This document shows positions 30,648-54,200 of a stretch of 64,000 nt of DNA, in pieces. Position numbers and translations under genes: made by a program. Numbering within the stretch: the first letter of the stretch is position 1; each line of letters starts with the position of its first letter. Under the pieces are notes generated by a model. It did no database searches, was not told where the DNA came from, and saw only the letters and a list, made by a program, of their open reading frames with translations. The DNA lies in assembly GCA_905178155.1 (NCBI GenBank), contig CAJINV010000009.1, positions 124,001-188,000 on the forward strand, in the 5' to 3' direction. This DNA is from Amoebophrya sp. A120 (taxonomy: Eukaryota > Protista > Dinoflagellata).

Positions 30648-31296
30648 AAATTTGACAAAGCAGAGCGACCGCGTTTTCAGCGACCTTTTCAAGAATACAC
30701 ACATTACAGATCATCTCCAACATGGCATGAGTTTTTCAGCTGTTTTTGCTATGCCTCTGCCTCGCTGATTGTCCTCGTGTTCATATTTTCGCATCAGGTG
30801 ACTGCCCGGAGTGGCAGCGGTTTGCGTTCTTGTATGGTAGGTATCAAATAGTCCAAGTGGTCGTACTCTTTTTCCTTTTCGTGCTATGCAAACCGGTCTT
30901 CAGCCCGGTGGTTCTTCATCGTTCGTGCAAACAGTGTGCAAGCATCTCGTCGTCGTCCTGTTTCCGTTTAGGCAATCGTACTGCATTCAAGTTTTGTTCG
31001 TCGTCGTACCAAAAAAGATCGTTGTCGTTGCTCCTTCTCAGGATTTATCCGCAATGTACGCGGCTGTGGGTTATCGTTTCCAACAAGATGGAGCACTCAC
31101 AGGGAAGTAGAAGATGCACAAATCTTGCTTGAAGAGCTGCTATCATCGTATTCGTAATCGTACCTGCTCCCTGGATTGAAGTAATTAATTCTTACTCCCC
31201 ACACGACCCGCAAACAATTTGATCCGCATTCGTGCAACCTCTGTTCGATGATTTCCTCTTAGTATACGACAGAAATCAAAAGCAACTTCGGCGAAG

Positions 31297-34200
31297 ATGT
31301 TCACGCTTGTCTTCGGCAAGAACGTTGACGTCCACTGGCTCAACGGTGGGTACTGCAAGTTTCTCTTCACTTACTTCCTGGTGCTGATTCTCGGCGTGAA
31401 GATCCAGTACTGGATATCCTGAGCAAAAACGTCCCCACCCCCGAGTTGTCATGCAGATTTGCAATGGCAGGAACATTTGTAATGCGCATCTTCATGAGAA
31501 GCGTTTCCAAATCCAATCGTGTTTTGCAATTTGTAATGCTGTAAACAGGATGAGAAAGTCATGCGGCTCTCCTTGCTAGCCAGCACTACACTGCAGATGG
31601 AAACTTGTCATGCAGAAGTCCCAAAACTTGGGAATTTGTGTTGCAGACCTCCCATCTTGACTATGGTGTGGGGACGTTTTTACATAGGATACTGGATCAA
31701 CCAGGAGCGATGGTTGGCCAGGCACAGCAACGACTACTACGTATCAAATGTAAAAATGTCTGGGTCTGGAAAGATGTAACTTGTGATGCGCATTTCAGAA
31801 CACACAAAAATCTCTGATGCATAGGCAGCCAAAGCTGCTCACTTTCTGTCACCAAAATGGAGGATTTGTCATGCGGATTCGGCATTGCGGAAGCTTCTCG
31901 AAACCTGTGATGCTAGAGCTTCCATGCCAGACCTTCGGTGTCATGCAGAAACAGCATCACTCTTCCAGACCCAGACATTTTTACATTTGATACTACGGGA
32001 ACACAGACTACTACTACACGCATTTGCTAGGTGGCTACTTGATGGAGGACAGAATGCGCTCAATAAGAGGCATGGTGGCGCCGGTGGCTTCTAACGGAAA
32101 TTTGACGGTTGTGCTAGAAGAGGAAGCGCAAGGAAATGCCTCGAACACTTCTGAAGCTGAGGTTACAGGGCTTTCAAGTTTTTCTCAAATAATGCGCAAG
32201 AAAGATGCTAACAGCAGCTGGCAAGTCCAGCAAGTGGGATTAAATGACGGCAAGCCGCTCCCCATGAAGCAGCACTACCACATGATCCGCTGGGACCTGT
32301 CGCAGGTTTTGCAGGAGGTGGTCGAGGCCATGCTGATGCACAACATCACGTCCAAGGCTTCCTTCGACGAGAAACTGGGGAAGATCCAGGAGGACCCGCA
32401 CACAAAGGCGTTATTTTGGGAGATGTTCGTCGGGAGTGTGGAGATCAAGTTGACAGAGATTCGGCCCAACGAGTACGGCTTTGTTTCGGAGGAGAAACAC
32501 GACCCGCTCTACCGGACCCCAGCGGACATCCGCCAGATCCAGCAGTACCAGCACTTTGCCGGCAACGTGACCCTGTACATCGCGGACCGACTCGCGGTGC
32601 ACGCGTTGCGCACCTACATCGACACCTATTTCAAGCCCTTCCACTCCCGGACCCAGAAGTACGCGGGCTACAAGGACGAGTACCTCTATTTTCCGGTAGA
32701 CGTGACCTTGAAGTCGGCACAGAATCTGTGGGGGCATCTGTCCTTCGTTGAAATTCTCGAAGTTTTGGGCAAGTTGCTCGAAGCGGAGAAGGAGGAGGAC
32801 AGGTTGGGAATTTTAGAAGGGTATGACGATGACCAAAATGCTGCTGGTGCTGTAACATGGATCACGAATAATGGGATTGGCAATGAAACGACTCCCACCC
32901 CCGGAAATAACGGGACAACTATCGGACCGAACGAAACCGGTACAACAAACGACGGCGTGGTACGCTTAAAGATCAACATCCCAGTTGGTGAGGAAAGCCA
33001 ACACTCCCAATCCTTTTTACAGCGCGACGTGAACGACAGTAACGAAACCACTGTAAAGAACGCCACGACAGCAGGTAACCAGACTGGAATTGGAAGAAAC
33101 GATTCCAATTCCACACATAAATCGTTGTCCGGAAGAGGAACCACGTTTGGGTCATGGGGAGATGTGAACTTGAAAGTGGAAGTTCCTGGGATAAAAATTG
33201 ACATGGACTTCTTTGGTGACATTACGAAATTGGACGTCGATGAGGTCCGCGAGAAGCTCGATCTGAACGCCTGGAAGGAGAAGCTGATCGCTCGGCACGG
33301 GCGGCTGAAGGCGTACGAGGACCCGTTTCTGAAGCTGCTCACAAGTGACTGGGTGCTGAAGAAATCGGTGAAGCTGGAGGCCAATCTACAGGAGCGCCAG
33401 AAGCTGCTTGGCCTGGAGTGGCTTGGCACAGCCCGGTTTTTTACGCACGAGCAATTGGCTTTGCTCCAGATGACGCAGGAGGTGTTCCAGGATGTTCTCC
33501 AGCTGCTGCGGCTGGACGTGCGCAGTCTCGCGGCGTGGCAGCAGTTTGTGCAAGATACCTCCACCAGGCACGGCTACGGCGACCACGTGTTACCCAACGG
33601 CCAGAGGCTGGGCAAAGTGCAGCTGCCCTCCGTGAGAGACCTGGAGCAGGTGAACCACGTACTGCGCGGCATGCTCAAGCTCATGAGCATCCCCGAGAAC
33701 CAGGATGCCATGGATGCCGAAGCAGAGGAGATTTTCGAAGATCTGGAAGCCGGGGACTTCGAGGGGGCAAAAGACCGCATGGTCAACGCGATGAATGAAG
33801 TTTTGGAGGAGGTCGAGCCCTTCACCATTCCCGGCTGGTTCAGTTTCAAGAACGGAGGGAGTGACGTCGCAGTTACCCCCTCCAAGGGCTCGGGCAAAGG
33901 AACGGGCGCAACCAAAGGCACGGGAAAAGGAACAGACAGCGACGTCTTGGACCCTTTCCTCCCTGAAAACAGCGACAACAGCACTGTAATCCCTCCGATT
34001 GTAGTGCTCGATGACGCCCTTTCGGAAGAGATTATCGACGACGTGCTGGGGAGCATCACGGGGGAAGTTGACGCAGAGAACATATTGCACGGTCAAGCCG
34101 ACAGCACAACGGAAGAGCCGCAAAACCAAATTCCTGTTACGCCGCTTGCCTCGACGGAAGCCCCGGACACGACGTCTGCTACGCCAACACCGGAAACTCC

Positions 34201-37200
34201 AGTGACGACAGAGGAGATTTCCGTTGAAAACGGATTGAAGGAGATCGGGGAGGGTTTGTTTCCGGCTGAAGACGAAAGCAAGGTCGAAGAGCTTCTGGAA
34301 GAGGGGCTGGCGACTATCGGGGACATGGGCATGATGGACAAACTGATGCTCGCCATGAAAGCCGATGAGTTTCTGAAGGCGGAAGACCCGGAGGAGAAGG
34401 CGCAACTGAAGCAAGACCTCGCCACGAGGCTAGACATTACGCCCGCCGAAGCGGACCTCTTGGCCGCCCACTTGCTCAAACACCACGAGGAAGGGACGTT
34501 GGTGGACCGGCTAAGGCCCTGGTTAGATGAGCAAGGGTTTGGACACTTGGTGAGTAGTTCAGCTTCGTCTTTCGTGTCGAAGAAAGTTGTAAATGCGATC
34601 GCAGGCGGCGTCGGAAGTGTCAGGACCACTCGAAGAAACATCAAAATCACGCCAGCAAAGACGCGCCAGTCTGACGTTCCAGATACGCACATGAAAGAAA
34701 AAGAATTTCGTACAACTTCCCGGCTTTTGAAGAAAGAAAAGCAAAGAAATTCAAAATCATTCTCTCCCGCAAGGACTTCCTTTTTGGAACATTTCGCGGA
34801 TCAGACAAGAGCTCACGAACTGTCTTCCGCGGCGGTATTTGAGAGGAAAACGAGTTTTTTGCGACGCGGACTCGCAATCACAATTGCAGGGAAAGAAGAG
34901 GTTTTGGGTGCAACGTCAGGGAGAAGAAGCTCTCTGCTGAGCCGTGGGACTACAGCATCAGATGACTCGTCGGACGCCGAAATAAAGGGCGATCAAGCTG
35001 CACAGGAGGGTGAGGAAAATGAAGATGGACATGACCACGACAAAAATGGAGATTCTGCCCACGACAGTGAAGACGGCATTTCCGCCCTGGAGCATGAACA
35101 ATCTCAGCAAACTGCGCACGAGGACCAGCACAGTGAAAACGGACCTGACGGAGATGATGACCATACCTCCTACGACCTGGACGAGATCCGGGACATCATC
35201 AAGAACCCGACGGACCGCATCGGGCAGAAGCAGGACGACGCGCTGCTGGACACGTTGCGCATCCTGAACGTGAAGCGCAACGTGGAGAAAGCGGCGCTGA
35301 AAGAGCCGGTGTTCAAGCAGTTCGACCGTTTTTTCCAGATGCTCAACCTCCGCCCGATGATCGATGCGGACCTTGAGGAGGCCTTCGAGGCTGAGGAGCA
35401 GGAGGAGGAGCGGAAAGCGAAGGAGGAACTTGAAGCGCTGCTGAAAGAGAACAAAACGGAAGGGGCGGGCCCGTCCTCCGCCTCCTGCTGCGGCGAAAAG
35501 GCAGAGGAGGAGGAGGAGAAAAAACCAGAACCGCTTAGCACCCTGATCCGGTACAACGTGCCCTGGGGAACCGGCACGGAGAGTCTCCAGCTCCTGCAAG
35601 CGTTCATCTTTTTGGTGGTGGAGGCGTTGACCATTTGGTTCACGTTTTTACTGCCCCTGTCCTTCCTGTACCGGTTGTTTGGGTCGTCGATCTTCGAGGA
35701 GCGCGAGAACAAAATGATGGAGATGCAGCTAATCTACGGCTTAGACAAATCGACCTACTGGCTGGCGAATCTGGTGTTCTTCTGGCTGATTCTGGGAACG
35801 CCCTTCCTCGTGGCGCACTGGCTAAACCTGAAGATGCTCAGCGACGTGCTCCCCGGGGAGCACTGGCAGCTGCCGCGCGGGGACACCAACGAGAAAATGT
35901 GGCACGAGCCGTATCCGCCGGCCTCGGAGTCGCTGATTTCCGTTTCGAGTAAAGCGATTTACCAAAAATTTGACAACCACGGATTGCGACGGCTGTTCGC
36001 GCCGGAGGAACTGAATTTCACCCCGTGGATTCCGATTTTCCCGCCGCTAGCGGCCTTACTCGCAGCGTCTACCCTCGCGATCAGTGTCGAAAAGCGGGAG
36101 AAATTCGAGTCCATCCTCGGCACGCTTTCCGGGTTGGGGAATCTGATGATCCTCGGGGCGTATGTGTTGATTGAGATCCTGTTCCCCACGAGGCTCTCCT
36201 TCTGGCCGACGGCGGTCGCCGGCGCGTTTGGCGTGTCCGAACCGAAGCAGGATGTGGTCTACGACCCGTCGTTATCAAATGCAAAAATGTCTGGGCCTGG
36301 AAGAGTTGGAACTTGTCATGCGAATTCTGGAATAGGCAAAAATTTGTATTGCATAAGCACCAAAAGCTTCCCATTTCTTTCTACGCAAATAGGGAATTTC
36401 TCATGCGTGATAGACATCAGGAGGCCTGCGCAAAACCTGTATTATGCTTTTGCGTGCATTAGAGACCAGTTGCGTGATCCAGAAGATGCATGACAAACTC
36501 CTGCAATCTTCCAGACCCAGACACTTTTGCATTTGATAGTCGCTCCCGCGGCCGCCGGAGCCGTGCAGCAGCGCGTACGACTGGCAAACCGTGAACCACA
36601 TTCTCTCCTTCGGGCTCGGGGTCACCGTCCCGGGCTACAGCTACCTCCGGATCGTCGAGCGGGGGCTGAACCTCATGCGCGCCACGGAGCTCGCGCGGCA
36701 CAAGGGGGCGGAGAGCGGCGAGAGCTCGCTGCTCGCGACCCCGAAGTACTGGAACATGGGGCTGCGGGGGCACAGTCTGTACAACTGTGCGCGGAACAAC
36801 GAGATGTCGCCACCAGAGTGGACGCAGCGGCAGAAGCCGATGCTGAACATTTTGAAACTGTCGAAACTCCCCTGGTATCAAATGCAAAAATGTCTGGGTC
36901 TGGAAGAATGCGCGATTTGTCATGCAGCTTTTCCATGACCATGAGGTCTGGAATGCAGGACCTAGCATGACAGATTCTGTGCGATCTCTCTCATGCCTAT
37001 CCTACATGACAAACTCCCTCACGACTTGGTCAAAACTGGACGACCTTTGGTAATCCTGCAACACAGATTTTTGCATGCTTGAGATTTAGCATGACAAGTT
37101 GCATTCTTCCAGACCCAGACATTTTTACAATCCATACCTGGGTCTGGGACGACGAAGCGAAGCTGGAGGAGTACGTGAACAACGCCGGCGCGACGGACTT

Positions 37201-40200
37201 GGCGCACCACCTCGGCCCGGAGTACTGGGTGCCGGTCACGCTGGAGTATCTCAGCTTGGTCTTGAACGTGCTGTTTTGGGGTTGCGCCCTGCTCTACGCG
37301 GAGAGAAGGCGACACAGGGCGGAGGCCGGTGATCACAGGGAAGCGGATGCTGAGACCGCGAAGAATGCTGTAAATGCAGCTCCAAACAAGGGTGGCATCC
37401 TGGATTCGCAGGGGAATCCCTCTATCGCACTCAAACTGGTCGAAATGACCAAGACGTTTGATAACGGGAGGAAGACGGCGAACGACAGGATTTCCTACGC
37501 TGTGAAGCGCGGGGAGATTTTCGGCTTGCTCGGCCACAACGGCGCGGGGAAAACGACCATGGTGTCGCAGATCTGCGGCCAGATCCCGGTCACGAGCGGG
37601 GACTGCTTCGTGACCGGACACAGCATCAAGACCTCGATCACGAAGGTCCGGCAGAACCTGGCGCTTTGCCCCCAAGCGAATCCGCTTTGGAACACGTACT
37701 CGATGCGACAACACTTACAGTATTTCGCCCGGTTACGGCAATTACCCGAGAAGGAACTGAACCAGACGATCGAAAAGTACGCGTTTCTGCTCGGTCTGGG
37801 CGAAAAGTTGGACACCAACTGCGAAAAGCTCTCCGGTGGCCAGAAGCGGCGGCTGTGGGTGCTTTGCTCTCTGCTAGGGTCAGCACCCGTTGTCATCATG
37901 GACGAGCCGACTTCTGGGATGGATCCGCAGGCGAGGCGGGATTTCTGGGTGTTGCTCAAGCGATTGGTCAAGGAGGAGCAGCGCGCGATCATTTTCAGCA
38001 CGCATTACCTGGAGGAAGCGGACTTGCTGGCGGATCGGAAGTTGATTCTCGCTGGCGGCAAGGTCGTCTGCATTGGCACGTCGCAGGAGCTGAAGCATAA
38101 CTTCGGCCAGGGCTTCTGGATCCACGCCATGGTGGACAAATCTGTGTGCCAGAACAATGTCGCCTTGGCAGAGAAGATTCTACACCAAGACTTGAAGCAG
38201 ATCGTGGAAAGGGAATTGTTCGCAAACGCGGAGAAGAATATGAAACAACCGGTCACGTCATCAGAGCAGATAGAACAACAAGGTACAACTCCAGGTGGAA
38301 ATAAAAATCGGGCAACAGCTGCCGCTTTCAATCGCGTGCGGACGAAGAACCCGAAGGTTTCCGACTACTTCCTCGCGTACAGCATTCCATGGGCGGAGGT
38401 GAAGGAAATGCCGCGCATTCTGGACGCACTGGCGAATTTTGCGGAGCAGAATTACCCACCCGGCTTGGTCGAGTTCACGGTGGAACAGACCACGTTGGAA
38501 GAAGTCTTCCGGAACGCGGGGGAGCTCGCGGACCGCGAGGAGGCGGAACGGCAAGAGAGGGTTCTGCAGGCGAAGGGCGGGAGCAGAAAAAAATTGAACC
38601 AAAATGCAAGAGTTTCCCTCGCCGCGATCGAGAACGAGAAAATGAAGGATTTGGTGGACAGCAATCCGAATGATATGCTGAAGCGCGTAACCGCACGAAC
38701 GGACCAGCTGGATCTGCATAATCCGATCGACGAAGACGGAACCACAACAAACGCAAACCGCCCACCGCTGATGCCGCGCAACTACTCCTTCTTTGCCCAG
38801 GTTCTCGCGATTTGGGAATTTCGATTTTACGGAGAATACCACCAGAGACTGCTCGGTGCGCAAATCGGCGGGGCGGTGTTTCTGATCGTGTGGGTCGTGC
38901 TCTGCATCCTGGTGAAGCTGAACGTCGACGACAAACTGGAGGAGTTCATGGAAGTGAAGGAGGAGGACAAGGAGAAAACGGAGATGAAAACTTCCACCCT
39001 TGCCACGGTCATGTCCGTCGGCCTCGGCGGCGTGATCGCCCCCCTAGCCTGGCAAATGTTCGGCGCAAGCGTCGTGAAGGACAGCTACCTGCCGGAAGAG
39101 GACCACGGGCTCGCCAAGCACCTGTACTTGCACGGCATCAGCAAGCCGGCTTACCACATTGCGTCCTGCCTCCACTGGTTGTGTTTTCTCACCCTACCCG
39201 GGTTCTTCTTCTTCACGCTGTCTTTGATCATTTACTTGAACCCGGTCTATGGGTTCAATGACAGTATGATCGGGACGCTGTGGCTCTCCTTCTTCTTCCT
39301 CGGCGTCATCCTCTCCCTCTTCCCCGCCATGCTGCTCACCTCCGGCATGGTTTCCCCGGGGGGCTGGACGATGTACGTGATCCTGAACTACGCCATGGGG
39401 TTCATCCCGACGATCATCGAGCGCGTGATGCAGACTGACTCCTGGGACATGAAGAAGGGAAACACGATCGACTGCTGGGTGCTCCCCACCGCGATGATTC
39501 AGGCGGGCGTCACCTCCACCGAGCAGATTTTCAACTTCGGCGCGCCGGTCTGGTGGCCGAAGGTTTGTTTGTACTTGATCTACATCGTGTTCCCGCCCAC
39601 CGCTTTGGCGGCGAACCTGAAGGGGCTATGGAAACTGCACGCACTGGACCGGATCACGGGCAAAAAAGCCGAGCATTTCTCCGTCTGGTACTACCTCACC
39701 GGCGATGTGGAGGAGCTACCCGCGGATTTGCGCATCTCGTTCGCGGACTCCGGTCTGCCGGACAACTGCAACTCGAACTACTTCCAGGTCACGAGCAGAT
39801 ACGAGGTGCTGGCGCCGCTGTGGAGCCTGGTGTTTTACATCATTGTCGGCATTCTCTACTACAAGGTCTACCTCCCGTACTTTGGGAAGGACGCCTACCG
39901 CACGGAGCAGCAGCTGTTGCGCGACCCGGTCATCGGACTGAAGCTCGCGGAGATCCTGCACAAGAAGTTGAAGGTGCGCGTATTGAGAGGAAAAATCCCC
40001 CCTCCCCATATTAAAAAGGTATGTTTCCAAAAATTTGTGTTGCGGATTTGAGGTCACAAATCCGATCTGTCTTGTAAGAAGACAAGGGCAGAAGCTTCCG
40101 CCCCATTATGGAAGCGACTTCTCATGCTGTCTGGCCTAAAGGGGGGCCGTTTGCCATGCTGAACCACTAGACCCATACGCCCCTACCTAGCCTGGGGATC

Positions 40201-43200
40201 TCGCCGCAGTGCCTCTGTGCAATACAAAGCTGATTTGTGGCCACAAATCAGCATAACAAGTCTCCGTTTTGATATGGGGAGGGGGGATTTTTCATTTTGA
40301 TAGCGCGACACCAAAACGGGGGAGGTGGTCCGGCTGGAAAAGCTCGGCGACGATAACGACGGGGACGTGAATATCCTGAGTAAAAACGTACCCACACCAG
40401 ACTTGTAATGCAGATTTGCAAAGACAGGAAGACTTGTAATGCGCATCCCCATGAGAGCCATTTCCAATCGTGTTTTGGAATTTGTGATGCTGTGAACAGG
40501 ATGAGCAGCTGGATTTGTGACGCGGCTGCACTTGCTAACCTGCACTACACTGCAGAGTGCAACTTGTCATGCGTGACTCACAAAGCTCCTAGGTTTGTGT
40601 TGCAAAATCCCCATCCTGACTCTGGTGTGGGTAGGTTTTTACTCAGGATAGTGAATGCGAATCGCGACCCGGACGTCGTGCGAGAGGAGCAGAAACCGGA
40701 CCGGGCCGCGGAGAGCTACGCGCTGGACGCCGTTAAATTGGTGAAGCACTTCCCGCCCAGCAGCAAGGCGCTGCAGGACAGCCATAACGAGCACCACGGA
40801 ACCGCGACGGAGAACAAGTACACGGCACTGCAGCTGCAGCAGATGAACACGAAGTGGGCCACGAAAAACGTGACGTTCGGTGTCTACGAGGGGGAGTGCT
40901 TCGGCCTGCTCGGGCCCAACGGCGCGGGAAAAACAACGTTGTTTAACCTGTTATCTGGCACGGAGATGGTGGATGTCGGGAGGATTTCGATTTACGGACA
41001 AGACTGTGTGAACACGAAGGAAGCGAGCTACACGGTGGGTTCCTTCCCGCAGGCCGCGCGGGAAAAGATGGGCCTGGCGCTATCAAATGTAAAAATGTCT
41101 GGGTCTGGAAACTTGTGATGCTAAAAGTGAACGAGAGTTCCACTGCAATACGGAGCCAAGCATGACAAATTTTTTGGGCTCCTATGTGTTGCGTGTCCCG
41201 CATGGCAAACTGCGTGTTTGCATGACAGAAAAGAGGACCGCTTCGTGCCCATGCATCACAGATTCTTGAGTCATGTCAGACACGCATGACAAATGCAGGA
41301 ATCTTCCAGACCCAGACATTTTTACATTTGATAGGCGCCGCAGTTCGACAAACTGTGGCCGCACGTGAGCGGGAGAGCGCATTTGCGCCTCTTCTCGAAG
41401 TATGGATTGTAAAAATGTCTGGGTCTGGAAGAATGCAACTTGTCATGCTGTTTTTGGATTCTAAAAAAATTAGTGTTGCGTGACCAGCAAGAAAGGTCCA
41501 GTCTGTGCTACGCGGAGAGGGCATTTCTCATGCGGAAGGCGCATCAGGAAGCCCTCTAAAATTCTGTGATGCTAGGTCATGCATTACAGGCATGAGGGGT
41601 CATGAAAAATATGCATGACAAGTCTTGCACTCTTCCAGACCCAGACATTTTTACATTTGATACGAAGTGCTGCGGCACCTACATGCGCGAGGGCGAGTTG
41701 GATCCCGAAGCCGGGGAGAAGAGGATTAGCACGTTTCTATCCTGAGTAAAAACGTACCCACACCAGAGTCAGGATGGGGATTTTGCAACACAAGCCTAGG
41801 AGTTTTGTGAGTCACGCATGACAAGTTGCACTCTGCAGTGTAGTGCAGGTTAGCAAGTGCAGCCGCATCACAGATTCGTCTGCTCATCCTGTTCACAGCA
41901 TCACAAATTCCAAAACACGACTGGAAATGGCTCTCATGGGGATGCGCATTACAAGTCTTCCTGTCTTTGCAAATCTGCATTACAACTCTGGCGTGGGTAC
42001 GTTTTTACTCAGGATAGTTTCTCAAGCAGGTCAGCCTATCCGAGATCGACGCCGACCGGAAAACCGAAGAGTACAGCGGTGGCATGAAGCGCAAGCTGTC
42101 TGTATCAACTGTAAAAATGTCTGGGTCTGGAAGAGTCATGCTGTTTCTGCATGACACAGAAGGTCTGTCATGGAAGCTCTAGCATCACAGGTTTCGAGAA
42201 GCTTTTGCTACCGATGCATGAGAGATTTTTGTGTGTTCTGAAATGCGCATCACAGGTTACATCCTTCCAGACCCAGACATTTTTACACTTCATAGTCTGT
42301 GGCGCTCACGTTGATCACGGAGCCGAAGCTGGTCTTTTTGGACGAAATGAGTGCAGGTATTGAACACAAATAAAGTTGCGTTTTCTACATACTGACATTT
42401 TTTCGCTATGCTGGTCTGTCACTGCCATACTCAGATGTAGCGGTCAATAGAAGCGGTTATTTCTTGTTTCTGGTACCAGGCTTACTTATGCTTCCGCACC
42501 ACTACTTTCAGAAGATTAGAATGTCAAGAAAAAGAATTATCTTTCTCTCCCCACTTCAGGCGTGGACATCGTTGCCCAGCAGTCTTTGTGGCGGAAGTTG
42601 ATCAACCGGCCCAAGGGGCAGACGATCATTACGACCACACACAGCATGATGGAAGCGGACGCGACGTCGGATCGCATCGGTATTCTGGTCGGGGGCAAGT
42701 TGAAGTGCCTCGGGTCCACGCACCGCATTAAGTCGCAGTACGGTAACGGCTACCAGCTGGAGCTTCTCGTGCGGTGGAAAAAGGGTTTCACGACCCCCGC
42801 CGGCGCGGGGATGGCAAAGGTAAGCACGAGCAGCCCGCTGGTGCGACGCACGGCAAGCATTTTCGCGCTGACCGCGCCGGAAACCAAAACTGCGTCCGTT
42901 TGGGAAGATGACGATCAGCCGCTCCTGGAGGTCTCGGACGAGGAGCGACGCAGCAAAATGAGTGTGGAAAAGGAGGAGCAGGAGAAAGAGATTTTGAAGG
43001 AGCTGCAGGCGGCCATGGAGGAGGAAGATAACAGCCCCGCCACACCAACTACGCCAGATCCCGCGATGAACGTGATGCCTTTCGTCCAGAGCATTCAAAA
43101 AGCGGGAAACATCGATAGTTTCCGGCTGGAAGAGAACGGACGTCGCAGCCAGGCAGGCATCAATGAAACTGCGCCTCTGGCGGGTGTCAATGAGACCATC

Positions 43201-43998
43201 GCTCCTGGGAGCGATAACTTTAGTATCGCAGGAGACTACGATCAACAAAATATTGCAGAGGTCGAAAGAAGGCGGGAGGACATTTTAGCGTCGTCGACCG
43301 TTGGCTCACAAGCAGGAGGAGCCCCAGTGAGAGGTAGTGCGGCGACCCAGGATGATTCGATTGATATCATTCCGAGTAGTCAAACGACGAGTCTGCCTTC
43401 TGGTGCGGAAATACCGCAGATACAAATTATTCACGGGGCACAACCTGAGGGAGAGGCGGATGAGGATGCTATTTCCGCTGGAGCAGAGTCGGACGCCGTA
43501 AGCAGTCTAGCCGTGAGCAACGAGATACTCTCGTCTGCCCCACCACCACCACCTGGTGCGCCAGCCGCTGTTGCGGCCGAAATCGTGGTCGCAGCAGCAG
43601 CTCCAAGAAGAACTACTGTCGCAAGAATCGAGCCGGCAACGGCGGACATCCTGGACGAGCGGATATTGATGCAATCTCTGATGCAGCATACTCCCCTGGA
43701 AGCGGAAGACATCTCCTTGAGTGAGAAAATGCTTTTCCAGACCGCGAATGCGGAGGGGGCGACGGAAACAGGGGCGCTGCCGGACGAGACGCAGAAATCG
43801 TTCCGCGTGCGGGTGATCTTCAACCTAAAGAAGAAACCGGGACTGATGTCCGCCGTGTTTCGGTGGTGCATGGACGACCCGCTGCAGATCATCGAAGACT
43901 ACGGCTTCGGTGAGCCAACACTGGAGCAGGTCTTCTTGAAATTCGCAAAGGAACAGGAAACCATCGAAGAGGATAAGGGCGCTTCAACAGAGACCTGA
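31297..43998 (+). CDS. Full-size ABCA-subfamily transporter (paralog 1), 12 exons, ~3,268 aa, interrupted by 10 TIR introners and one GT-AG intron (42357-42559)
   Basis: Exons 31297-31414, 31697-31741, 31998-36271, 36543-36875, 37142-39980, 40308-40371, 40656-41080, 41339-41400, 41668-41737, 42022-42102, 42300-42356 and 42560-43998 sum to 9,807 nt in frame. NBD1 has GHNGAGKTT, LSGGQKRRL, DEPTSGMD and THYLEEA. NBD2 has GPNGAGKTT, YSGGMKRKL and DEMSAGVD. C-terminal PTLEQVF. Colinear with the neighbouring paralog. Confidence 0.92.
31415..31691. mobile_element. Introner/MITE family B, 277 bp, TSD CTGGA
   Basis: Ends TATCCTGAGCAAAAACGTCCCCAC and GTGGGGACGTTTTTACATAGGATA. CTGGA at 31410-31414 and 31692-31696. 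Removal gives IQYW-INQE. Confidence 0.93.
31742..31992. mobile_element. Introner/MITE family A, 251 bp, TSD CTACG
   Basis: TIR TATCAAATGTAAAAATGTCTGGGTCTGGAA / TTCCAGACCCAGACATTTTTACATTTGATA. CTACG on both sides. Removal gives NDYY-GNTD. Confidence 0.95.
36273..36538. mobile_element. Introner/MITE family A, 266 bp, imperfect TSD GTCGT/GTCGC
   Basis: TATCAAATGCAAAAATGTCTGGGCCTGGAAG ... CTTCCAGACCCAGACACTTTTGCATTTGATA. Removal gives YDPS-LPRPPEPC in frame. Confidence 0.93.
36876..37136. mobile_element. Introner/MITE family A, 261 bp, TSD CCTGG
   Basis: TATCAAATGCAAAAATGTCTGGGTCTGGAAG ... CTTCCAGACCCAGACATTTTTACAATCCATA. Removal gives KLPW-VWDDEAK (paralog: RLAWSYEDGDK). Confidence 0.95.
39981..40302. 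mobile_element. Introner/MITE family C, 322 bp, TSD GCGCG
   Basis: TATTGAGAGGAAAAATCCCCCCTCCCCATAT ... ATATGGGGAGGGGGGATTTTTCATTTTGATA. GCGCG on both sides. Removal gives KVR-DTKTG. Confidence 0.93.
40372..40650. mobile_element. Introner/MITE family B, 279 bp, TSD GTGAA
   Basis: TATCCTGAGTAAAAACGTACCCACACCAGA ... TCTGGTGTGGGTAGGTTTTTACTCAGGATA. Removal gives GDV-NANRDPDV. Confidence 0.95.
41081..41333. mobile_element. Introner/MITE family A, 253 bp, TSD GGCGC
   Basis: Perfect 30-bp TIR TATCAAATGTAAAAATGTCTGGGTCTGGAA. Removal restores the Q-loop MGLA-PQFDKLW. Confidence 0.96.
41401..41662. mobile_element. Introner/MITE family A, 262 bp, TSD CGAAG
   Basis: TATGGATTGTAAAAATGTCTGGGTCTGGAAG ... 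CTTCCAGACCCAGACATTTTTACATTTGATA. Removal gives LFSK-CCGTY (paralog: LYAKCSGTY). Confidence 0.95.
41738..42016. mobile_element. Introner/MITE family B, 279 bp, TSD GTTTC, inverted relative to 40372-40650
   Basis: TATCCTGAGTAAAAACGTACCCACACCAGAGT ... ACTCTGGCGTGGGTACGTTTTTACTCAGGATA. Removal gives ISTF-LKQV. Confidence 0.96.
42103..42294. mobile_element. Introner/MITE family A, 192 bp, TSD GTCTG; shorter, inverted relative of 31742-31992
   Basis: TATCAACTGTAAAAATGTCTGGGTCTGGAAG ... CTTCCAGACCCAGACATTTTTACACTTCATA. Removal restores YSGGMKRKLS-VALTL. Confidence 0.95.
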
Positions 43999-45282
43999 TG
44001 AATTCGCTCAACCCTCACTCGATCGACATCAGTTTCTGGATACAACTATTTTGCGTTTCTATTTCTAATTGAATTCATCTATGTACTTACTTACTACTAC
44101 AGCACTTTTGGCCCAATTTGAATTTTCAAGGAGCGGCAGGGTTTGCTGTCTCTTTATCTTACATCACCCAGACCCAGACCCACCATCACCAATTATGGAC
44201 TTCCACTTTATTCTCATACTGACTCCTGTCGGACTTACATCACAGAAACAGACATTCTTTCTATCTTCCTTCTTCGTCTTGTTTCTAAAGTACGTCTGAC
44301 GAAGAACAGCAAGCATGCATAGCAGCCGTTAGTTTAGCTTCCCCAGAAATTTTCTACATTTGGACACACGCATCTGTGCATTTTTCTCCCCTTCTGCCCG
44401 CGGCCAGTAGTATCCCCACAGAAGTTTTTCATTTTGTCATCTATGTATCTTTCCAAGAGAAGAAAAAATATTGCCGTCGACCATGGGATGTTCATATTTT
44501 GCTTCGCTTGTTGTTGTTCATCTGCGGGCTTGAGCGCGTCGCTTTGATTCATTTATTGCAGGCTCCAGGAAGAATGTGAATGCAAAAAGCCACAATCACC
44601 CGCATGTTTCGTATTGTGATTATGCATCCGAATCTTCGTCCGCTCCTGATGCAGTGAGGAAAAAATAACGGCGCTCTAACATTTTCGTGCATAGTCTGGC
44701 GATCGTTCTTCTTTAGTGTCGTGTCAAATTTCAGTTGTGATACATCTTGGATCGTTCGTATTCTTCGTCTTCGTGCGTCCTTCGACGGTATCGCAAGTAC
44801 AGCTCCTGTTTCTGTTTCACAATGTCAGGATCTCTTGAGGCCCTTTCGTTACACTTACATTGGCAGGATGAAGTAGCATTCCTAGAAGTGAAACCCATAT
44901 TTTTACCCCATTTGAATTACGAAAAAAAATCCACCCGCTATGTAAATTCACTATAGCTGCATCTCGACGATGAATATTGTGAGTCGGTGTCTGCCCTCAA
45001 TAACTACAATAAAATTTTACAGGAGACAGAGTCACGAGAGCCCGTACATGGGTGACTAGTACCTAAGTACACTTCCTTGTTAGTTATGATGTTTCGTACC
45101 TTGTGTTACTATGCAATTTGACAATAGAGCTCGTTTCGCCACGGCGTAGATCCTACTCCAATATTATCCCACAGAGCTAGTTCTTGATTTGACAAGGCCT
45201 CCCTTTTATTGTTCCTTCATGCGAGAAGTCATCAAACCTTAAATCCTCCTTCATCCGTTGCTTTTGTTCAGGTCCGCCCAGC

Positions 45283-48200
45283 ATGTTGGCGGGTTTTGGC
45301 GTCGTTTGGGAGAAGAATATGCAGGTGTATTGGCGAAACGGGGGCTACTGCCAGTATCTGGTCACCTACGTGATTGTCTTATGCCTGGGTATCCGTCACC
45401 AGCTGTACTGGAACGCGGAGGAGTTGCGCGCGGACCACTTTACAGCGTACCACGAGACGCTCACCCTCCCGAACACGACCCTGGCGGAGCTGAAAGAAAA
45501 CGCCACCGTGGTGGACACCGTGCGCAAGTGGATTGTTCGTGAGCTCGCGTACGGTCTGGTTCACAACAACGCGGACAGCCAGCAGGAGGCGATGACGCTC
45601 TTGCACGGCGTGTTGCAGCATCCCCACGTGGCGAACTCGGAGCTCGTGTCCGTGCAAAGGGGCGGCCCCGAACCGGAGCTGTTCCGCCACGCTGTGAGCG
45701 GCCTGGTGTCCAACATCACCGCAAAGGTGCTGCGGCAGGAAGCAAGCATTTCCATCGTGGACTTCGTGCGCGAAACCAATCCAGCGTTGCTGCTGCGGGC
45801 GTTTCCCGATCCGCATCTTCTGCAGAACAGCCTGATGCCGATCGAAGAACAAACGGAATACGCACGAAGGCTTGTTTCGGGGGGCCACTTGGGGGGTGGG
45901 ACTGGAAAGATCTTGGGCAAGAAATCTTCTGAGGAGAATGCTGAGATGAAAAGCGCGAGGACGTTTGCGGAGAAACTGTCGGACGAGCACGATTTGATCG
46001 GTTTGTTGGAGAAGATACTCGCCTCAACCGAGCCGCCGGGCGACCTGTCGCGAGTCGTGGACTGGAAGTTTTTGGCCGGGGAAAGCGTGTACGCGGACTA
46101 CGTACGGGACACGCTGAACGTCACCGCCGAGCTTGTCCGCGCATTCTACGGGGAGGACCTGGACAGCGCGAATTATAACGAAGGAGAAGGCGAGGGCCCT
46201 GTTCCAGCCGCCCCTTCCACGCTAACCAAGGAGGATCTGCGGCAGCTGGGAAGCCTGAGCACGGCACTGTTTTTGGCCAATCTAGTGGTGCCAGCCAGTC
46301 GTTTTATTGCGCTCGCGCAGACCAGAAACATGTTTGTTGAAAGCGGCCTTTCACTGTCAGCCGCGGAGGGAGCAGAGAGCGAGACCAACCTCCAGTTGCT
46401 CCACAGCCTGGGGATGCTCATCACCTCGCTGAGAACCGAGAAGCTCGATGTGAAGAAAGATGCAGAGACTAAGAAACCTGAAAAGGCGGGGCTTCAGAAC
46501 GTGGACGGGGAGGAAGCTCCTGCTCCCTGGGGAAACGATCATCCCTGGTGGGTTTTGCAGCTGTTTTCCATGCGACCACGAGCTGCCGCACTCCAGGAGA
46601 AGCTCGGAAACCTAAAGCAGGGCGGCGGCGCTGCCAATGCCACAGTAGGGGTAGTAAATGCCACGGAAATTCCTACACCGACTCTTCAGAGTGAGCTACG
46701 GCAGTCGGTCGAAGCAATTTTGACGATGGAGTTTTTTGCGAACGCACTCGCGTCGAGCGACGTGTCGGCAGTCGAGCTGGGTAAGAGACTGGCCAGCTCA
46801 CGGGAAAGGGCCGCTGAGGTGGCTGTGAAGGAGGCCACTGATCTGAAGAATTCTACCTACTACGATATGCCTTTGGCGCCCATGCTGCTGGATGCGGAGC
46901 ACAGTAAAGAAAGTCAAAAGGTTGGCCCAGCACCAAACTCGTTATACATGTACGAGAAAAATAAGCAGGAACTTCTGAATCCGGGCGGGCGCTTCGGTCC
47001 CGGGGGGGCCGAGGACTTTCAGGATCAGGACCCGAAGAAGAGGGTGGCTAGATTTTGGAAATTCGGGGGCGCAGACCCCTCCGCTGGAGCACTAAAGGAC
47101 CGAACAGATGATCCGGAACAAGCAAAATCCCCCGTAGAGGAAATAGCTAGATTCTTGCCGCGCGACAGATCGAAAGATCGGCGGTTGGCGGAAAAGGGAA
47201 GCGGAAAGGGGCAGCAAGACCACAAAGGCATAGATATGGAAAAGAGGCTGGAGAGGAGGGCCCGACGTGCCCCGCCAGGGAAGGATTTTTTACAATCTCG
47301 CGTTTCGTTTCTGCAGAAGTCGCATCTGCGTCGACGCGCGAGTCCAGCAGCTACGCTTGACGGGAAGTCGAGGGACGCTGGTTTTTCAAAAATCAAAGCT
47401 CCTCGACGTCCAACGACGCTGCTGCAACGCGGACTTCGCCGTGAGGGTGTAACTACTCTGGCCGCGTCTCCACTCAGACCGAAACCGCAGCACACCATGT
47501 TGTCCGAAGACATTCGTCCGGGAGGAGGAGAGTTGAAGACAGAAGGACGAGGCGTCGGTACAACGGGAGAAAGCTCGGCGTGCGCGGATCCAAGTTCCGG
47601 CATCAGACGAAGCGTGAACAACAATGCCAGGGGCACGAACTCCTACGGCAGCCACGCTGGCGGTGATTCCCTCATGGATAAGTCGTCGCGATTTTTGTTT
47701 ACCGCAGAGGGCGATGAAGCAGGTACAGCCGCGAAGATCCACTTCACATCTACATCTTTCGCCGAAGCAGAGGAAGAAGATTCGCAAGAGCAAGATGATG
47801 TCGTGTATAAAAATGCACGTCCCCTTCGGAAAGAAGAGGACACGGCAACATCAACCTTCCTGGCGACTTCATCCAGCAGAGCGACCAAAAATGATCCCCA
47901 TGTTGACGCAGAAAGCCAGAGAGTACAGCTGCCCGACGGGACTGTGGAGCCAGGGAAGAATGAAGGGAAAAGTATCGCACCAGCGCCAACTTCCACACTG
48001 CCCCCGGAGCCAGCCGCACCACAACCGCCTGCTCCGCAGGAGGCCTTGGCACTCGTGTCCCGTCAGACGGAGCGGAACCTTTTGGATTCCATGCGCGCCG
48101 AAATTTTGTCAACATTTGACACGGACGGGGCGCTACTGAACGCCCTGGACGCGGAGCTGACGGACGCCCCGTCCGATCTCGATGTGAAGACCACGGGCGG

Positions 48201-51200
48201 GTGGCCCGACGCCATGGGAAGCATGCGGCTGTTGCTCGGATATCAAAGTGAAAAAAGCCCCCACCCCATATCGGAAACGGAAGATGCGCGAATTTGTGAT
48301 GCTGTATTTGAGTACACAAATCAACTTGTATTGCTAGAAGGCCGAGAGACGAAGCTGCGGCCTAAATTGCAGGTAATCTGTCATGCTGTTTCCCACTTCC
48401 AGTTGCCTCTTGTCATCCTGGAGCTGCAAGGCTTTCCCACGCTAGACAGCGCTACAGTCTGCATCTTTTGCCTTCTAGCATCACAAAGCTGATTTGTGAC
48501 CACAAATCTGCATCACAGATTTCCGTTTTGATATGGGGAGAGGGCATTTTTCATGGTAATATCGGATTCATCCTGTTCATCCTCGAAGCCGTGGTGGCCT
48601 GGTTCACGTTTCTACTACCGTTGTCTTTCCTCTACCGCTTGTACGGACTGGCGATTTTTGCGGAGAAGGAAAGCGAGCTGATGGACATGCAGCTGATTTA
48701 CGGCATGCGGAAGCGCACGTACTGGGTGGCAAACATCCTCTTCTTTTTCGTTGTCCTCGGCACCCCGTTCATGATCACGCACTGGGTGAACCTGGCTCTG
48801 GTCGCACAGATTATCCCCCTCGACCGCCTGTGGCCGTCGAACTTCCTGTTTTACGTCTTCGCGCCCATGTGCCCACCGCTGGCGGTGTTGCTGGCGGTGT
48901 CCGCCTTGGCCATGCGTGTGCGAAATTCCGAGAAGTTCGAGAGCGCGGTGACCACGATCAGTTCGCTCGGGAATTTGCTGGTCTTGGGCGTCTACATTCT
49001 CTGGGAGGTCCTCCTGCCGACGCGCATTTCCTTCTGGGCGACTGCGATCCGGGGCGCGCTGACCACCCACGGGCTCGCGGCCACGGAGGAGGTCCCCTTG
49101 GCATCCATGTGTCCCGACGTCAGCGCGGGCGCGTGGAACGTGGTGCTGTCGACGATCTTCGGCGTTGCCGTTCCCGGCTACGCCTACATGCGGCTGAACA
49201 TGCGGGGCTGGCAAATGAAGGGCGTGCTGCAGCTGATGCGGCATCGGGGCAGCGAGATGGGTTGGTACTCGCTGGAACCCTTGGCGCCGGCCTGGAACCA
49301 GGGCCTCCGCGGCCACAGTTTGTACTACTGCGCGCGCGACAACTTTCCCTCCCCGCCACCGGACACCGTCCGCAGCCAGCCCGCGCTGGATCTGACCGGG
49401 CTGTCCCGTCTCGCGTGGTCCTACGAGGACGGCGACAAGATCGAGCAGTACGCCAACCAGGCGGGCGCCGCGGAGCTGAGCCGCACGCTTCCGTTTGCGG
49501 ACTACGATCTGATCATCCTGCTGGACCTGCTCGCGGTCTTTCTCAACGTGGGCTTCTGGATTCTGGTGGTGTACCGGATCGAAAGGTACCAGAAGCAGGC
49601 CACTTCCGGGGACGTGCTTACGGTCGAGGAGACCTTTCGCGAAGCGGGACTCGCGACGGACGCGCCGCCCAAGGTAAAAATGGTGCTTGCGAGTTCCGAT
49701 TCTTCGGACTCGGATTGGGATTCAGTGCGAGCAAAGTATCGCCAGTCGGTCGCCGGGCCGAGCGGAGCAGACAGAGCTTCTGCGAGATTGTCGTTGTTGA
49801 AAAGGCAAAGCCTACAACAACGGGGAAGCAAAGAACCTGCTTTCGAGCCGCCTGATCGTCCTGAAGAACAAGCCAATTTGCAGCCCGCGGGGGCGAAGAA
49901 GGGGAAGCATGTTGCGCCGTCCGTCCCGGCGCGCGGACACAAAGTGCCGATCGTTCTGCAGGTGAAGAAGGTTACGAAGACGTTTTTGCAAGGCGAGAAG
50001 GTCGTGAACAACGACGTGAGTTTCGAGATCAAGCGCGGCGAGATTTTCGGGCTGCTGGGGCACAACGGGGCGGGAAAAACCACTTTGCTGAACATGATCA
50101 GTGGCAAGGTCCCGGTGACGTTCGGAAAGATCGTGATCATGGGACGAACCAACAGCGCGGCAGAGATCCGCAAGAACAATTTGATCACACTCTGTCCGCA
50201 GGGGAATCCCTTGTGGGACAATTTCACCGTGGACCAGCACGTGCGGTTCTTTGCCCGGTTGCGCAACGTGGACGACGTGGAGGCCTCGGTCCGCAAGTAC
50301 GCGTCGCTTTTAGGGTTGAGCCAGCACTTTGACACGCACTGCAAGTACCTGTCCGGCGGGCAGAAGCGGCGGCTGTGGGTGCTGTGCTGTCTGCTCGGGT
50401 CCGCGCCGGTGGTGCTGATGGACGAGCCCACGACGGGCATGGATCCGCAGGCGCGCCGAGATTTTTGGATTTTGCTCAAGAAGATCGTGAAGGAGGAGAA
50501 GCGGTCCGTCATCTTCACCACACACTACCTCGAGGAGGCGGACCTGCTTGCGGAGCGGAAGTGCATCTTGGCGCACGGCAAGATCCGTGCGATTGGCACG
50601 TCGCAGCAGCTGAAGCGGCAACTCGGCAGCGGGTTCTGGATTCACGCGATGATCGAAAAGCGGGAGGACGCGAACCCAGACCTGGTAAGGAACGCACTAA
50701 GATCCCTCGCGCCCATCATCGAACGTGTTCTGTACCCGAAAGGCATCACATTTTCCTCTAGGCCAGTGACATCAACTGCCGCCAGGAGTCCTCCTTCGAT
50801 GGGCACTGCAGCACTTCTGGACCGAGGCGCAGATTCCATGGACACGGACAGCGAGAGAAGCGAAAAGAAAAAACGGAAGAAAAACAAAGAGCCACTTCCG
50901 CTGGCTGAGTTGGACGACGGGTCGCGGACTATGATTGGCAAGATCGTGACGAAAAATCCTCGCAACAGCCGGCACTTCTTGGCCTTTCTCATCCCTTGGG
51001 AAAAGATCCCGCAAATGGCGGCCGTGCTGGAGGCCCTGCAGAAGCGCCGGGGGGAGATGCTCGAACGGGGATGGACAGTGATCCCCACCAGTTTGTTGTC
51101 CGGATTGCACGGTGAACTCGCCGACCCCGTGAGGGTGGACTTCACCATCGCACAGACCACGCTGGAGGAAGTGTTTCACACGGCGGGCGAGGTGGCAGAC

Positions 51201-54200
51201 CGGGAGCTGTACGACTTCGCACAGCTAGCCGCGTTGCGGTCGGTCGGCGCGCGGGACCTGGCCCTGTCTCGTGCGCCGCTCAGGAGGCGGCAGCTCGGAT
51301 TCAAGTCGCAGTTCTTGGCCATCGTGGAGTTTCGGCTTTTCGGTTCCGTTTTTAATCGAACCACTCTGGGACACTGGGCAGTTGCCGCCTTTTTTCTGGC
51401 GGCGTACTTCGGCTACTGCCTTCTGATGAAATACCAGGTCGACTCCCAGCTCGCGGCCGCCGAGAACGATGAAAGCACGACGACCTCCTCCTCCGCCGAA
51501 GACCAACTGAATCTCCATTGGGCCGCGGTGCTCATGTGCTTGGGTCTCGCCTCGCTGGTGATGCCCTTTGCCTTCTTTCTGTTCGGCGGAACCCTCGTCC
51601 GGAGAGACTACCTGCTGGAGAGCGACTGCGACCTGCAACTGTGGCGCCACTTGTCCATGCACGGTGTCCGCCGCGTTGCCTACCACGCGGGCACTTTCGC
51701 GTCGTGGTTCATTTTCTTTGCGACCCCGTTCTGGCTTGCGTTTGCGCTGATCACGCTGCATTCCATGGGCGACGTGTTTTCGTGCTCGAGCGCGATGCGG
51801 GGCGTCTTTGTCTGCATGCAGCTCGTCTTCCCCGCCTTGAACTCCATTATTTGTCCCATGTTCGTGTGCGGCAGCTCGTTCACGACGAGAAACCTGTGGA
51901 CGGTGTTTTTCGTGTGCAGTTTTGCGGTCGCGTTTCTGCCGATGATTTTGGGGAAAATCCTCAGCACCGGCTACTACGACGTGGAGCAGACCGCGCCCAG
52001 CTGCCTGATCCTCGAGTTCGCGATGGCCAGTGCCGGGGTGGAGAGTGTGGGGGAGATCCTGCAATTCGGGTTCCCCAACGGCTGGATGAAGGTCTGGCTG
52101 CCGATCTACATCCTGTTCCCACCGATCGCCCAGGCGGCGAGCCTCCAGGGGCTCTACAAAATGTGGGCATTGTGGAAGTTGGACGTGCATTTTGTCGGCC
52201 ACATCAACACTGGGGCCTTGCTCAGGTCACGGCTGGTTCAAAGAACCAACTCTGGAAGTTTCAACAAACTCGCACCTCCGTCGGAGGCTCGGCGTCATTT
52301 CGACAGTGCGGTCGCAGAAGAGAACGGGCGGACGGTGGTAAAGAGCAAGTACTACGGTGCCAACTTCTTTCTGTTTGGGCACGTCCCGGAAGACATGCCT
52401 GATGGCGACGACCTGCAGCGGAGCCTGGCGAAGCTTGAGCCGAATCATTGTCAGGCCGAGTACTGGGAGACGGTTGCGTGGTATGAGGTGCTGGCTCCGC
52501 TCTACAGCTTTTTGTTCTACCTTTCCGTTTGGCTTCTCTGGGAGGGGCTGATCCAGCCTTACCTCGCGGGACGCGGAGAAGTGCGGCACGAGAGCAAGGC
52601 AAAGTTGGAAGGCGCCCTCCGCGACGAAGGGGCGGAGCCGGCTCTACAGGAGCACAACCTGCCCTCCAAACCGCCCTCGCTGAACCCGATGCTGTCGCGC
52701 TGGTCGCAAAACTCCACGAACAGCGCGGGCTCGCAGGGCTCTCTAGGCGGTGTAGCCGCCGGAGGACCGGGCACGGTTAACCTACCCAGCCCGGAGGCGA
52801 TTGCCGCTATGACCGTCGTTCCACCGATCGCTGCGGACGAAGAAAGGGACGAGGACATCGTCGCCGAGGAAAAGCGGCTGAAAAACCGGGAGCACGAGCC
52901 CGCTGTGCTCGCGATAGACGTCTGGAAGCACTTCAAAGTGTTGTCAACAGCAGCGAGTACCCAGGCGCGGCTCGTTCGCGACGGTCTGAAGAAGCAATTC
53001 TCGTCCGCCGAGGGAGGAGGTTCTTTAGCAAAGCCGGCTACAAGAACTCCTGCCGACGCAGACGCCGGCAGGCACGTTCCTCCTGGTGAAATAATTACAG
53101 CTGAAGAGAAGGGAACCAAGAATCTTCCTCCCTCGCCGTCCAAAGAAGATCATAGTGCACCGCCTCCAGCACTCGACATCAGTCCGACACAGGAGGAAAC
53201 CACCAGCCTCCGGTGGGCTACCCGGGGCGTCACTCTGGGGGTGGAGAAGACGGAGTGCTTTGCACTGCTGGGCCCGAACGGCGCAGGGAAGACAACTTTG
53301 TTCAACCTTTTGTCGGGCTACGAAACCTTGGACATCGGAGAGGTTTCTCTTTTTGGCAAAATCATGTCTAGCTTTGGCACGACGGATCAGGAGAATGCGC
53401 GGTCGATCATGTCGTCCCCCAAGCGAAGCAAAAGGCGGACCAGCTATGAGCTGGATATGTTAACGACGGGGTTTCAGCGGCGGGAGGACGTGATCGGGGT
53501 GGTCCCGCAGTTTGACAAGTTGTGGCCTCACCTTACCGGCCGGCAGCATGTGCGTCTGTACGCGAAGTGTTCCGGCACGTACTACCCGTTACCGCCAGGA
53601 CCGGGTCAGAGGCTGTCTCCGGACGAGCTGCTCGGCATTCCGCGCGATGACGGCGAGGAGCGGGTCTCGCGGTTTCTGCGCGAGGTGCAACTTTCCGACA
53701 AGGACGCCGACCGGGCGGTGGAAACCTACTCGGGCGGCATGAAGAGACGTCTCTCCCTCGCCGTCAGTCTGGTCACCGATCCCGCACTGGTGTTCCTCGA
53801 CGAGATGTCTGCGGGCGTGGACGTGGTGGCTCAGAAGGCGTTGTGGAACAAGCTGATCAACCGGCCCCGTGGGCAGACGGTGGTCACCACCACGCACTCC
53901 ATGGCCGAGGCCGACGCGGTCTCGGACCGCATTGGCATTTTGGTGTCGGGGCAGCTCAAGTGTCTGGGGCCCAGCTACAAAATCAAAAGCAAGTACGGGA
54001 ACGGATTTCATTTGGAATTGATTCTGAACCTGAGCAAGCACCGGTTGCTAAGGATGCAGCAAGAGTTGGCGATGGAAGCGGGCGGCGGATCGCGCATAAG
54101 CGGTATTGGAGAATCAGTTCTCCCGGCAGCAGGAAACAAGGCACAAAAGAACTCACCGAGGAGCGACGCTGTGGTCGAAGTTGTAAAAAGCAACGGCGTG

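Follow-up and report, generated by a model that had tools for sequence, protein, structure and literature searches.

Within one gene of Amoebophrya sp. A120, near-identical copies of an introner lie in opposite orientations, and both are joined out of the transcript contigs exactly, each together with one copy of its TSD. The gene lies in the 64,000-nucleotide stretch of DNA analysed here (the window), whose elements belong to the introner class that Farhat et al. 2021 (PMC7789003) have already described from A120; an initial annotation of the window recognised the inverted copies correctly but missed their identity as published introners. What the present analysis adds is that the elements are jointly neutral towards orientation and target bases, which constrains the removal mechanism to the element ends. 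Since both neutralities hold, a fixed polar signal in the interior is ruled out, as is any splice dinucleotide taken over from the target, and the ends are therefore the only remaining cis signal. The likeliest mechanism, we infer, is removal of the focal introners from the pre-mRNA by machinery keyed on their identical ends, with the cuts set by distance and not by GT-AG, a reading towards which we lean modestly. A signal confined to the ends would explain how introners could spread until, as given by Farhat et al. 2021 (PMC7789003), they made up 17% of this assembly of A120.

An inverted pair of introners in an ABCA-type transporter gene

The 3268-aa model of the host gene (Table 1) is identical to the public protein P0001, labelled Amoebophrya sp. 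A120, which already lacks all ten elements of the gene; the exon translation is 100% identical to this A120-labelled protein, its other relatives are ABCA transporters, and it has matches to PF00005. Once every element is taken out with one TSD, ten fragments merge into a single frame of 2809 codons (31252-42371), and each of the ten elements, if retained, leads to a stop within 4-75 codons. The reverse focal copy (41738-42016) is placed within the second ABC domain of the host protein, and its junction is crossed gap-free by 8 of 10 homologues other than the window's own.

A census that required TAT ends found 11 elements in the 64-kb window, and a second search, with the terminal bases left free, recovered 10 elements, every one with TAT ends. 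The TSD is of 5 bp, perfect in 10 of the 11 elements and with one mismatch in the other, and the inverted-repeat motif of TAT, seven variable bases and at least three A is present in all 11. The elements are short, bounded by TIRs, flanked by TSDs of fixed length and present in many copies, as is typical of MITEs, and a miniature DNA transposon is the likely source of the focal elements.

Table 1. Host gene, introners and canonical intron in the window
Feature	Position	Strand	TSD	cDNA skip	Remarks
ABCA-type transporter gene	31297..43998	+			3268 aa once one GT-AG intron and ten elements, with one TSD apiece, are removed
Family A introner	31415..31691	+	CTGGA	282	~80% identical to focal pair
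Family B introner	31742..31992	+	CTACG	256	
Family B introner	36273..36538	+	GTCGT/GTCGC (imperfect; 36268-36272, 36539-36543)		joint 36267>36539
Family B introner	36876..37136	-	CCTGG	266	
Family C introner	39981..40302	.	GCGCG	327	
Focal introner, family A	40372..40650	+ (forward)	GTGAA (40367-40371, 40651-40655)	284	TIR ~30 nt
Family B-type TIR, separate interior cluster	41081..41333	-	GGCGC	258	opposite to 31742
Family B introner	41401..41662	+	CGAAG	267	
Focal introner, family A	41738..42016	- (reverse)	GTTTC (41733-41737, 42017-42021)	284	
Family B introner	42103..42294	-	GTCTG	197	related to 31742, with a shorter interior
Canonical GT-AG intron, 203 nt	42357..42559	+		203	GT..AG; control
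Family C-type introner in next gene	48241..48561	.	TCGGA		removal opens 3335-codon frame 45193-55524

Near-identity of the inverted focal copies, claimed in the initial annotation, is borne out by alignment: both are 279 nt long, and 40372-40650 agrees with the reverse complement of 41738-42016 at 268 of 279 positions (11 mismatches, 0 gaps), a similarity (96% over 279 nt) far above chance expectation. Their interiors match solely when opposed (alignment score of 386 in opposite and 6 in the same orientation) and are not palindromic (self-palindrome scores of just 6 and 14), so that the orientation of each copy is well defined. Each copy starts with TAT, ends with ATA, has a TIR match of 29/30 and carries a perfect 5-bp TSD, and the TIR of 40372-40650 is extendable to 55 nt at 78%. 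That one kind of element occurs in both orientations within one gene holds for the focal pair and for the further examples that had been put forward. For example, the interior of 42103-42294 matches that of 31742-31992 in opposite orientation with an identity of 0.95, the former being internally shortened, and the TATGGATTG end lies at the left of 41401-41662 and at the right of 36876-37136, whose interiors are opposed (121 vs 25). The focal pair amounts to a natural controlled experiment, with one sequence in two directions within a single transcript. The peptide noted on both the + and the - strand is indeed identical over 31 residues because the focal copies are inverted, and it gives no evidence of a gene; as a gene candidate it was rejected as a by-product of element inversion.

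Exact removal in both orientations

Runs X1, X2 and X3 represent one sample of unrecorded library type and were available as contigs only; we treat them as transcripts because the canonical GT-AG intron (42357-42559) is absent from them. All ten elements of the host gene are joined out exactly in each of these runs (the skip being element length plus 5), in both orientations as had been proposed, with the focal joints at 40366>40651 and 41732>42017, each skipping 284. In all three runs, the main contig carries the joined form at 10/10 sites. One X1 contig covers 37144-39975, 40651-41075 and 42557-44438, and the 64 and 272 letters between these pieces are the exon lengths predicted after element removal. 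A single extra joint, of 63 nt inside 31415-31691, occurs in X3 only and probably derives from another element copy. Skipping of the exons between the focal copies, suggested in the initial annotation, found no support: no joint skipping 40656-41737 is present among the joints listed, and the main contigs, which as contigs drop rare variants, retain all middle exons. Judged from the junction phases, such skipping would take out 557 nt of exon and cause a frameshift.

The element at 36273-36538 bounds the cut register. Its joint has 4 letters that fit either side, and the downstream TSD copy is the one kept in the cDNA and in the public protein; because the two TSD copies differ at base 5, the cut in this one element does not lie at the first T of TAT but before the fifth TSD base. 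Imperfect TSDs of this kind could map the cut register genome-wide; in the window and the loci among the matches listed (described below), 26 of 44 are host-called, and half are synonymous with no clear side preference.

The joints might instead be reverse-transcriptase jumps across the hairpin from one direct repeat to the other, the elements being bypassed in the cell by polymerase copy-choice or by ribosome hopping between matched TSD codons. All transcript evidence is cDNA, and a hairpin with short direct repeats is the falsitron pattern, which in the accessible reports makes up as much as 70% of cDNA reads in human cases; such jumps would yield neutrality towards orientation and TSD free of charge and predict that the downstream TSD copy is kept, as at 36273. 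We nevertheless regard this explanation as improbable, for an artefact alone leaves unexplained the intact 3268-aa frame across ten stop-bearing inserts, and the joined form predominates at every site in all three runs. If a polymerase jumped after copying all of the first TSD, the upstream copy would be the one retained, contrary to what is seen at 36273, and for ten long ribosome hops per mRNA we know of no precedent.

Precise excision from DNA by a transposase-like enzyme, in one life stage or in the transcribed copies, would move the event away from RNA altogether. Ciliates remove internal eliminated sequences from DNA, and the recognition of TIRs is inherently symmetric when it takes place on DNA, so that orientation neutrality, TSD neutrality and the equal counts of G.U and A.C pairs reported below would all be covered together. 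We rate it as very improbable. Run X5, which retains the canonical intron (contig 42267-48265) and hence behaves as DNA, has contigs that span the listed exon-element borders unbroken at a single-copy depth of 42-49 (the borders of 41738-42016 lie outside the pieces shown), and no germline-soma split is known to us in this parasite. In its accessible part, Farhat et al. 2021 (PMC7789003) found no transposase in A120, although the accessible part of Gozashti 2025 reports TIR elements with integrase-like ORFs. Contig depth over elements relative to exons is far lower in X1 than in X5, depth here being no gauge of copy number or expression.

The focal exons are not covered in X4 and X9. Raw RNA reads of X9 include family B element ends (window 37058-37129) at 90-95% identity with foreign flanks, the exons of the gene being uncovered, and these reads may derive from another strain that shares family B or from an element retained in another transcript.

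Orientation and frame beyond the window

The tally beyond the window rests on a scan for a 20-base family B motif on either strand, which returned at least 151 stretches. The 149 loci among the matches listed (480,935 bases) all belong to one metagenome assembly and may not be of the A120 strain. Together with the window they hold 304 distinct elements; three longer than 600 nt were dropped, and 275 of the remaining 301 clustered with no orientation conflict. The host strand outside the window was taken not from RNA but from a coding model for which 14 frames of the window served as the training set. This model called 143 of the 301 elements (130 were both called and clustered) among the matches listed, and all 11 of its calls in the window were +, matching RNA for ten. 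In the largest families of the window and the loci among the matches listed, forward and reverse copies stand at 28:24 and 11:13, at 4:9 in family A (p 0.27) and at 5:4, and all 8 families with at least 4 host-called copies occur in both orientations; family A has at least 22 copies and family B at least 105. Element orientation relative to the host gene is about 50:50 in this tally, of the kind that the initial annotation had suggested, and no bias was detected.

The frame on each side of an element was also called separately, with removal not assumed. Among the matches listed, 54 of 301 elements were callable; the strands of the two flanks agreed in 53 of these 54, and removal of element length plus 5 restores the frame in 52 of the 53, that is, in 25/26 and 24/24 when divided by orientation. 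Called pairs at least 92% identical among the matches listed comprise 13 same-facing and 8 opposite-facing ones.

Several families in these loci have TAT and a 5-bp TSD but no A-run at positions 11-13 (for example, L002 3177-3405, L003 5248-5489 and L007 7261-7576), so that the A-run is not universal. One of the elements longer than 600 nt (L018 505-1608, 1104 bp) has TAT TIRs and a perfect TSD; by eye, its 238-codon open stretch looks low in complexity and unlike a transposase.

Absence of splice signals and target-base preference

Signals were sought in 124 host-called elements with a perfect TSD, drawn from the window and the loci among the matches listed. In this set, the TSD has no base bias against a phase-matched coding background (the lowest p among 11 positions is 0.019, for a surplus of A at the centre), no register shows a clear enrichment of GT, GC, GA, AT or AG, and no purine preference follows the TSD. 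Comparison of the 5' with the 3' end profiles of the elements among the matches listed shows no difference (family-wise p 0.34). Some register offers a canonical pair in 17/124 elements in sense and in 9/124 in the antisense control (Fisher p 0.15), leaving 107/124 without any canonical splice option in the window and the loci among the matches listed. Within the window, only 41081-41333 (GC..AG) among the 11 elements has such an option. Neither focal copy contains a GT-AG, GC-AG, GA-AG or AT-AC pair in any register. As for a branch motif, YTRAY is present in the sense strand of 40372 and absent from that of 41738, and the nearby canonical intron lacks it near its 3' end as well, so that YTRAY may not be the consensus of this organism. 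Because the element is removed with five target bases, at least one cut should fall in unconstrained, target-derived sequence.

A relaxed but still polar spliceosome could read linear signals in the TIRs, with the 5' arm standing in for the donor and the 3' arm supplying tract and branch through its T-run and its adenosines, such that the symmetry would reside in the sequence and no RNA stem would be needed. The lack of a wobble signature in the TIR stems and the exact removal of 42103 without predicted terminal pairs speak for it. So do accessible reports that nearly all spliceosomal proteins are present in A120 (Farhat et al. 2021, PMC7789003), that the either-orientation introners of Polarella are spliceosomal, and that the commonest annotated non-canonical ends of A120 are all NT-NN (Table S4), in keeping with a cut one base before TAT. 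Nonetheless, the candidate donor and acceptor positions fall in a TSD free of base bias among the matches listed, TATG, the end that resembles a donor, shows no enrichment on the 5' side (17 vs 34 at 3'), and the ends of Table S4 depend on where the aligner places the cut inside the direct repeat; we consider such a spliceosome unlikely. A more specific candidate, x5-TAT(C/G) as a GTATG donor mimic, was set aside as unsupported, since TATG occurs 17 times at the 5' end only and 34 times at the 3' end only among the matches listed, a difference that is not significant family-wise.

The TSD starts at the third codon position in 59/124 elements, against 34 and 31 for the other positions, among the matches listed (p 0.003). 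A preference for symmetric targets with A/T at the centre may account for this excess, given that only this phase centres a codon on the TSD; a phase-0 intron bias is an alternative.

Predicted pairing of the element ends

Terminal pairing on the sense strand is predicted at 23-30 of 30 positions in all 11 window elements. In 42103-42294, three terminal pairs are predicted to be unformed (P 0.01-0.02), and the element is still removed exactly; in 31415-31691, the outermost predicted pair is weak (0.18). Over 143 elements, including the loci among the matches listed, the sense-strand TIR stem has 134 G.U and 144 A.C, and as G.U is not commoner than A.C there is no sign of selection on RNA pairing in this set. 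The stems may be far stronger than needed, and hence without a wobble signature. Rfam returned no matches at the gathering score in window 30000-50000, where group I and II introns, snoRNAs and other families were covered.

The two focal copies pose a puzzle, in that they are predicted to pair mutually and yet each is removed on its own. The predicted equilibrium fold pairs the inverted copies with each other at -537 kcal/mol, as compared with -110 and -115 kcal/mol. Pairing of the focal copies in the pre-mRNA, as the initial annotation envisaged, is therefore what the equilibrium model predicts, but its supposed outcome, exon skipping, was not seen. If the modelled pairing holds, its occurrence without skipping suggests local, early commitment of each element or a check for matching TSDs. 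Three points weigh against a simple stem model, namely the observed lack of a G.U excess, the removal of 42103-42294 without its terminal pairs and the modelled equilibrium fold of the inverted copies, the last of which would oblige the model to assume a kinetic step.

A further possibility is that A120 frees its mRNA of tens of thousands of transposon inserts by a system that is fully symmetric and non-spliceosomal, acting through the paired ends only, ignoring the cut bases and possibly cross-checking the direct repeats. Were this true, any insertion in any orientation and coding position would be an instant intron; we hold it to be doubtful.

Relationship to known introners and nonconventional introns

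In its accessible part, Farhat et al. 2021 (PMC7789003) describes 29,850 copies of A120 introners with a TAT-N7-AAA motif, hairpin-capable ends and no splice signature, reports no U1 in A120 and proposes a distinct mechanism. The window elements agree with these introners in organism, TAT-N7-AAA inverted repeat, direct repeats at the borders (3-5 nt), non-canonical ends and repeated families, and likewise in their removal in RNA-seq data with non-canonical ends, found here at 10/10 joints and with 10/11 elements lacking a canonical register. They differ in that the accessible text gives inverted repeats of 8-20 nt and variable direct repeats, whereas the window has TIRs of up to ~30 nt and a uniform 5-bp TSD. 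We found no statement on the orientation of A120 introners in the literature searched, which excluded most subscription papers, and in the accessible main and supplementary text of Farhat et al. 2021 (PMC7789003) the passages on 'orientation' concern genes, not elements. The accessible parts of two later papers describe a method that admits opposite-orientation copies (Gozashti 2022) and diverse sources of A120 introners (Gozashti 2025).

TIR/TSD transposons make introns in both orientations in Polarella glacialis and Aureococcus as well, according to the accessible text of a preprint (Roy et al., 10.1101/2020.10.14.339549). These introners draw their splice sites (GT/GC/GA and AG) on the TSD or the element end, require a TSD motif such as GHN6, and are biased to one orientation in classes 6, 8 and 10, whereas in A120 no orientation bias was detected, the TSD is unbiased and 107/124 elements among the matches listed lack a canonical option, so that recruitment from a biased TSD is not seen. 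Because the introners of Polarella and Aureococcus use the polar spliceosome, removal in either orientation is by itself insufficient to argue for symmetric recognition, and the argument depends in addition on the observation made here that the TSD contributes no splice dinucleotide. The ends of canonical U2/U12 introns (GT-AG, GC-AG, AT-AC) are found in neither focal copy. The non-canonical introns of Fritillaria borealis (known to us through the accessible part of a review, PMC11282704) are similar in being TIR/TSD-derived on a genomic scale, but are spliceosomal with preferred AG-AC and AG-AT ends and exonic TAC, and no such preference is seen here.

The A120 elements appear, by analogy, to work like the nonconventional introns of Euglena and hemistasiid diplonemids, which in the accessible parts of PMC12501133 and PMC12621601 are described as having no GT-AG, paired ends, spacer-defined cuts and a proposed MITE-like origin. 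The code of the Euglena introns, N3CDG / CHGN5-6 followed by a purine, is a short motif with an exon-base preference in these sources and was not found here; in contrast, the A120 elements end in long TAT TIRs, their TSD is strictly 5 bp long and the exon bases show no preference. A120 belongs to a different lineage, and homology is not implied.

A proposed model of end-keyed removal

Returning to the preferred reading of removal from the pre-mRNA through the element ends, we suggest the following course. A non-autonomous TIR element, presumably mobilised by a transposase, would insert with a 5-bp TSD in either orientation and with no target-base requirement, in agreement with the structure of the copies. 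After transcription, the element and one TSD are removed exactly and the frame is restored, as seen in the cDNA contigs. Recognition would rest on the TAT-N7-A-rich motif, which is met at both ends whichever the direction, and the arms, predicted to pair, would place the two TSD copies adjacent at the foot of the stem. The cut in target-derived sequence is likely set by a fixed offset, comparable to the spacer lengths of the nonconventional introns of Euglena. Each element is likely committed soon after transcription, because the predicted fold of the full-length RNA joins the inverted copies to one another instead. As for symmetric recognition of the TIRs, proposed in the initial annotation, its factual basis stands, namely the removal of both orientations and the lack of a canonical pair, and the recognition itself is what we infer from these. 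As the catalyst, a spliceosome-derived core without U1 is slightly favoured over a separate nuclease and ligase.

Other features of the window

A second very long gene (~45193-55526) shares ABC-like repeats with the host gene, of which it is probably a tandem paralogue, and contains a single element, 48241-48561, at which no RNA joint was seen. A 33-bp tandem repeat of about nine units lies at window 2089-2385. Among ORFs of at least 300 aa in window 1-55526, 13 of 16 are on the + strand, and all three on the - strand overlap + ORFs, a mostly + arrangement that resembles the co-oriented gene blocks reported for Amoebophrya.
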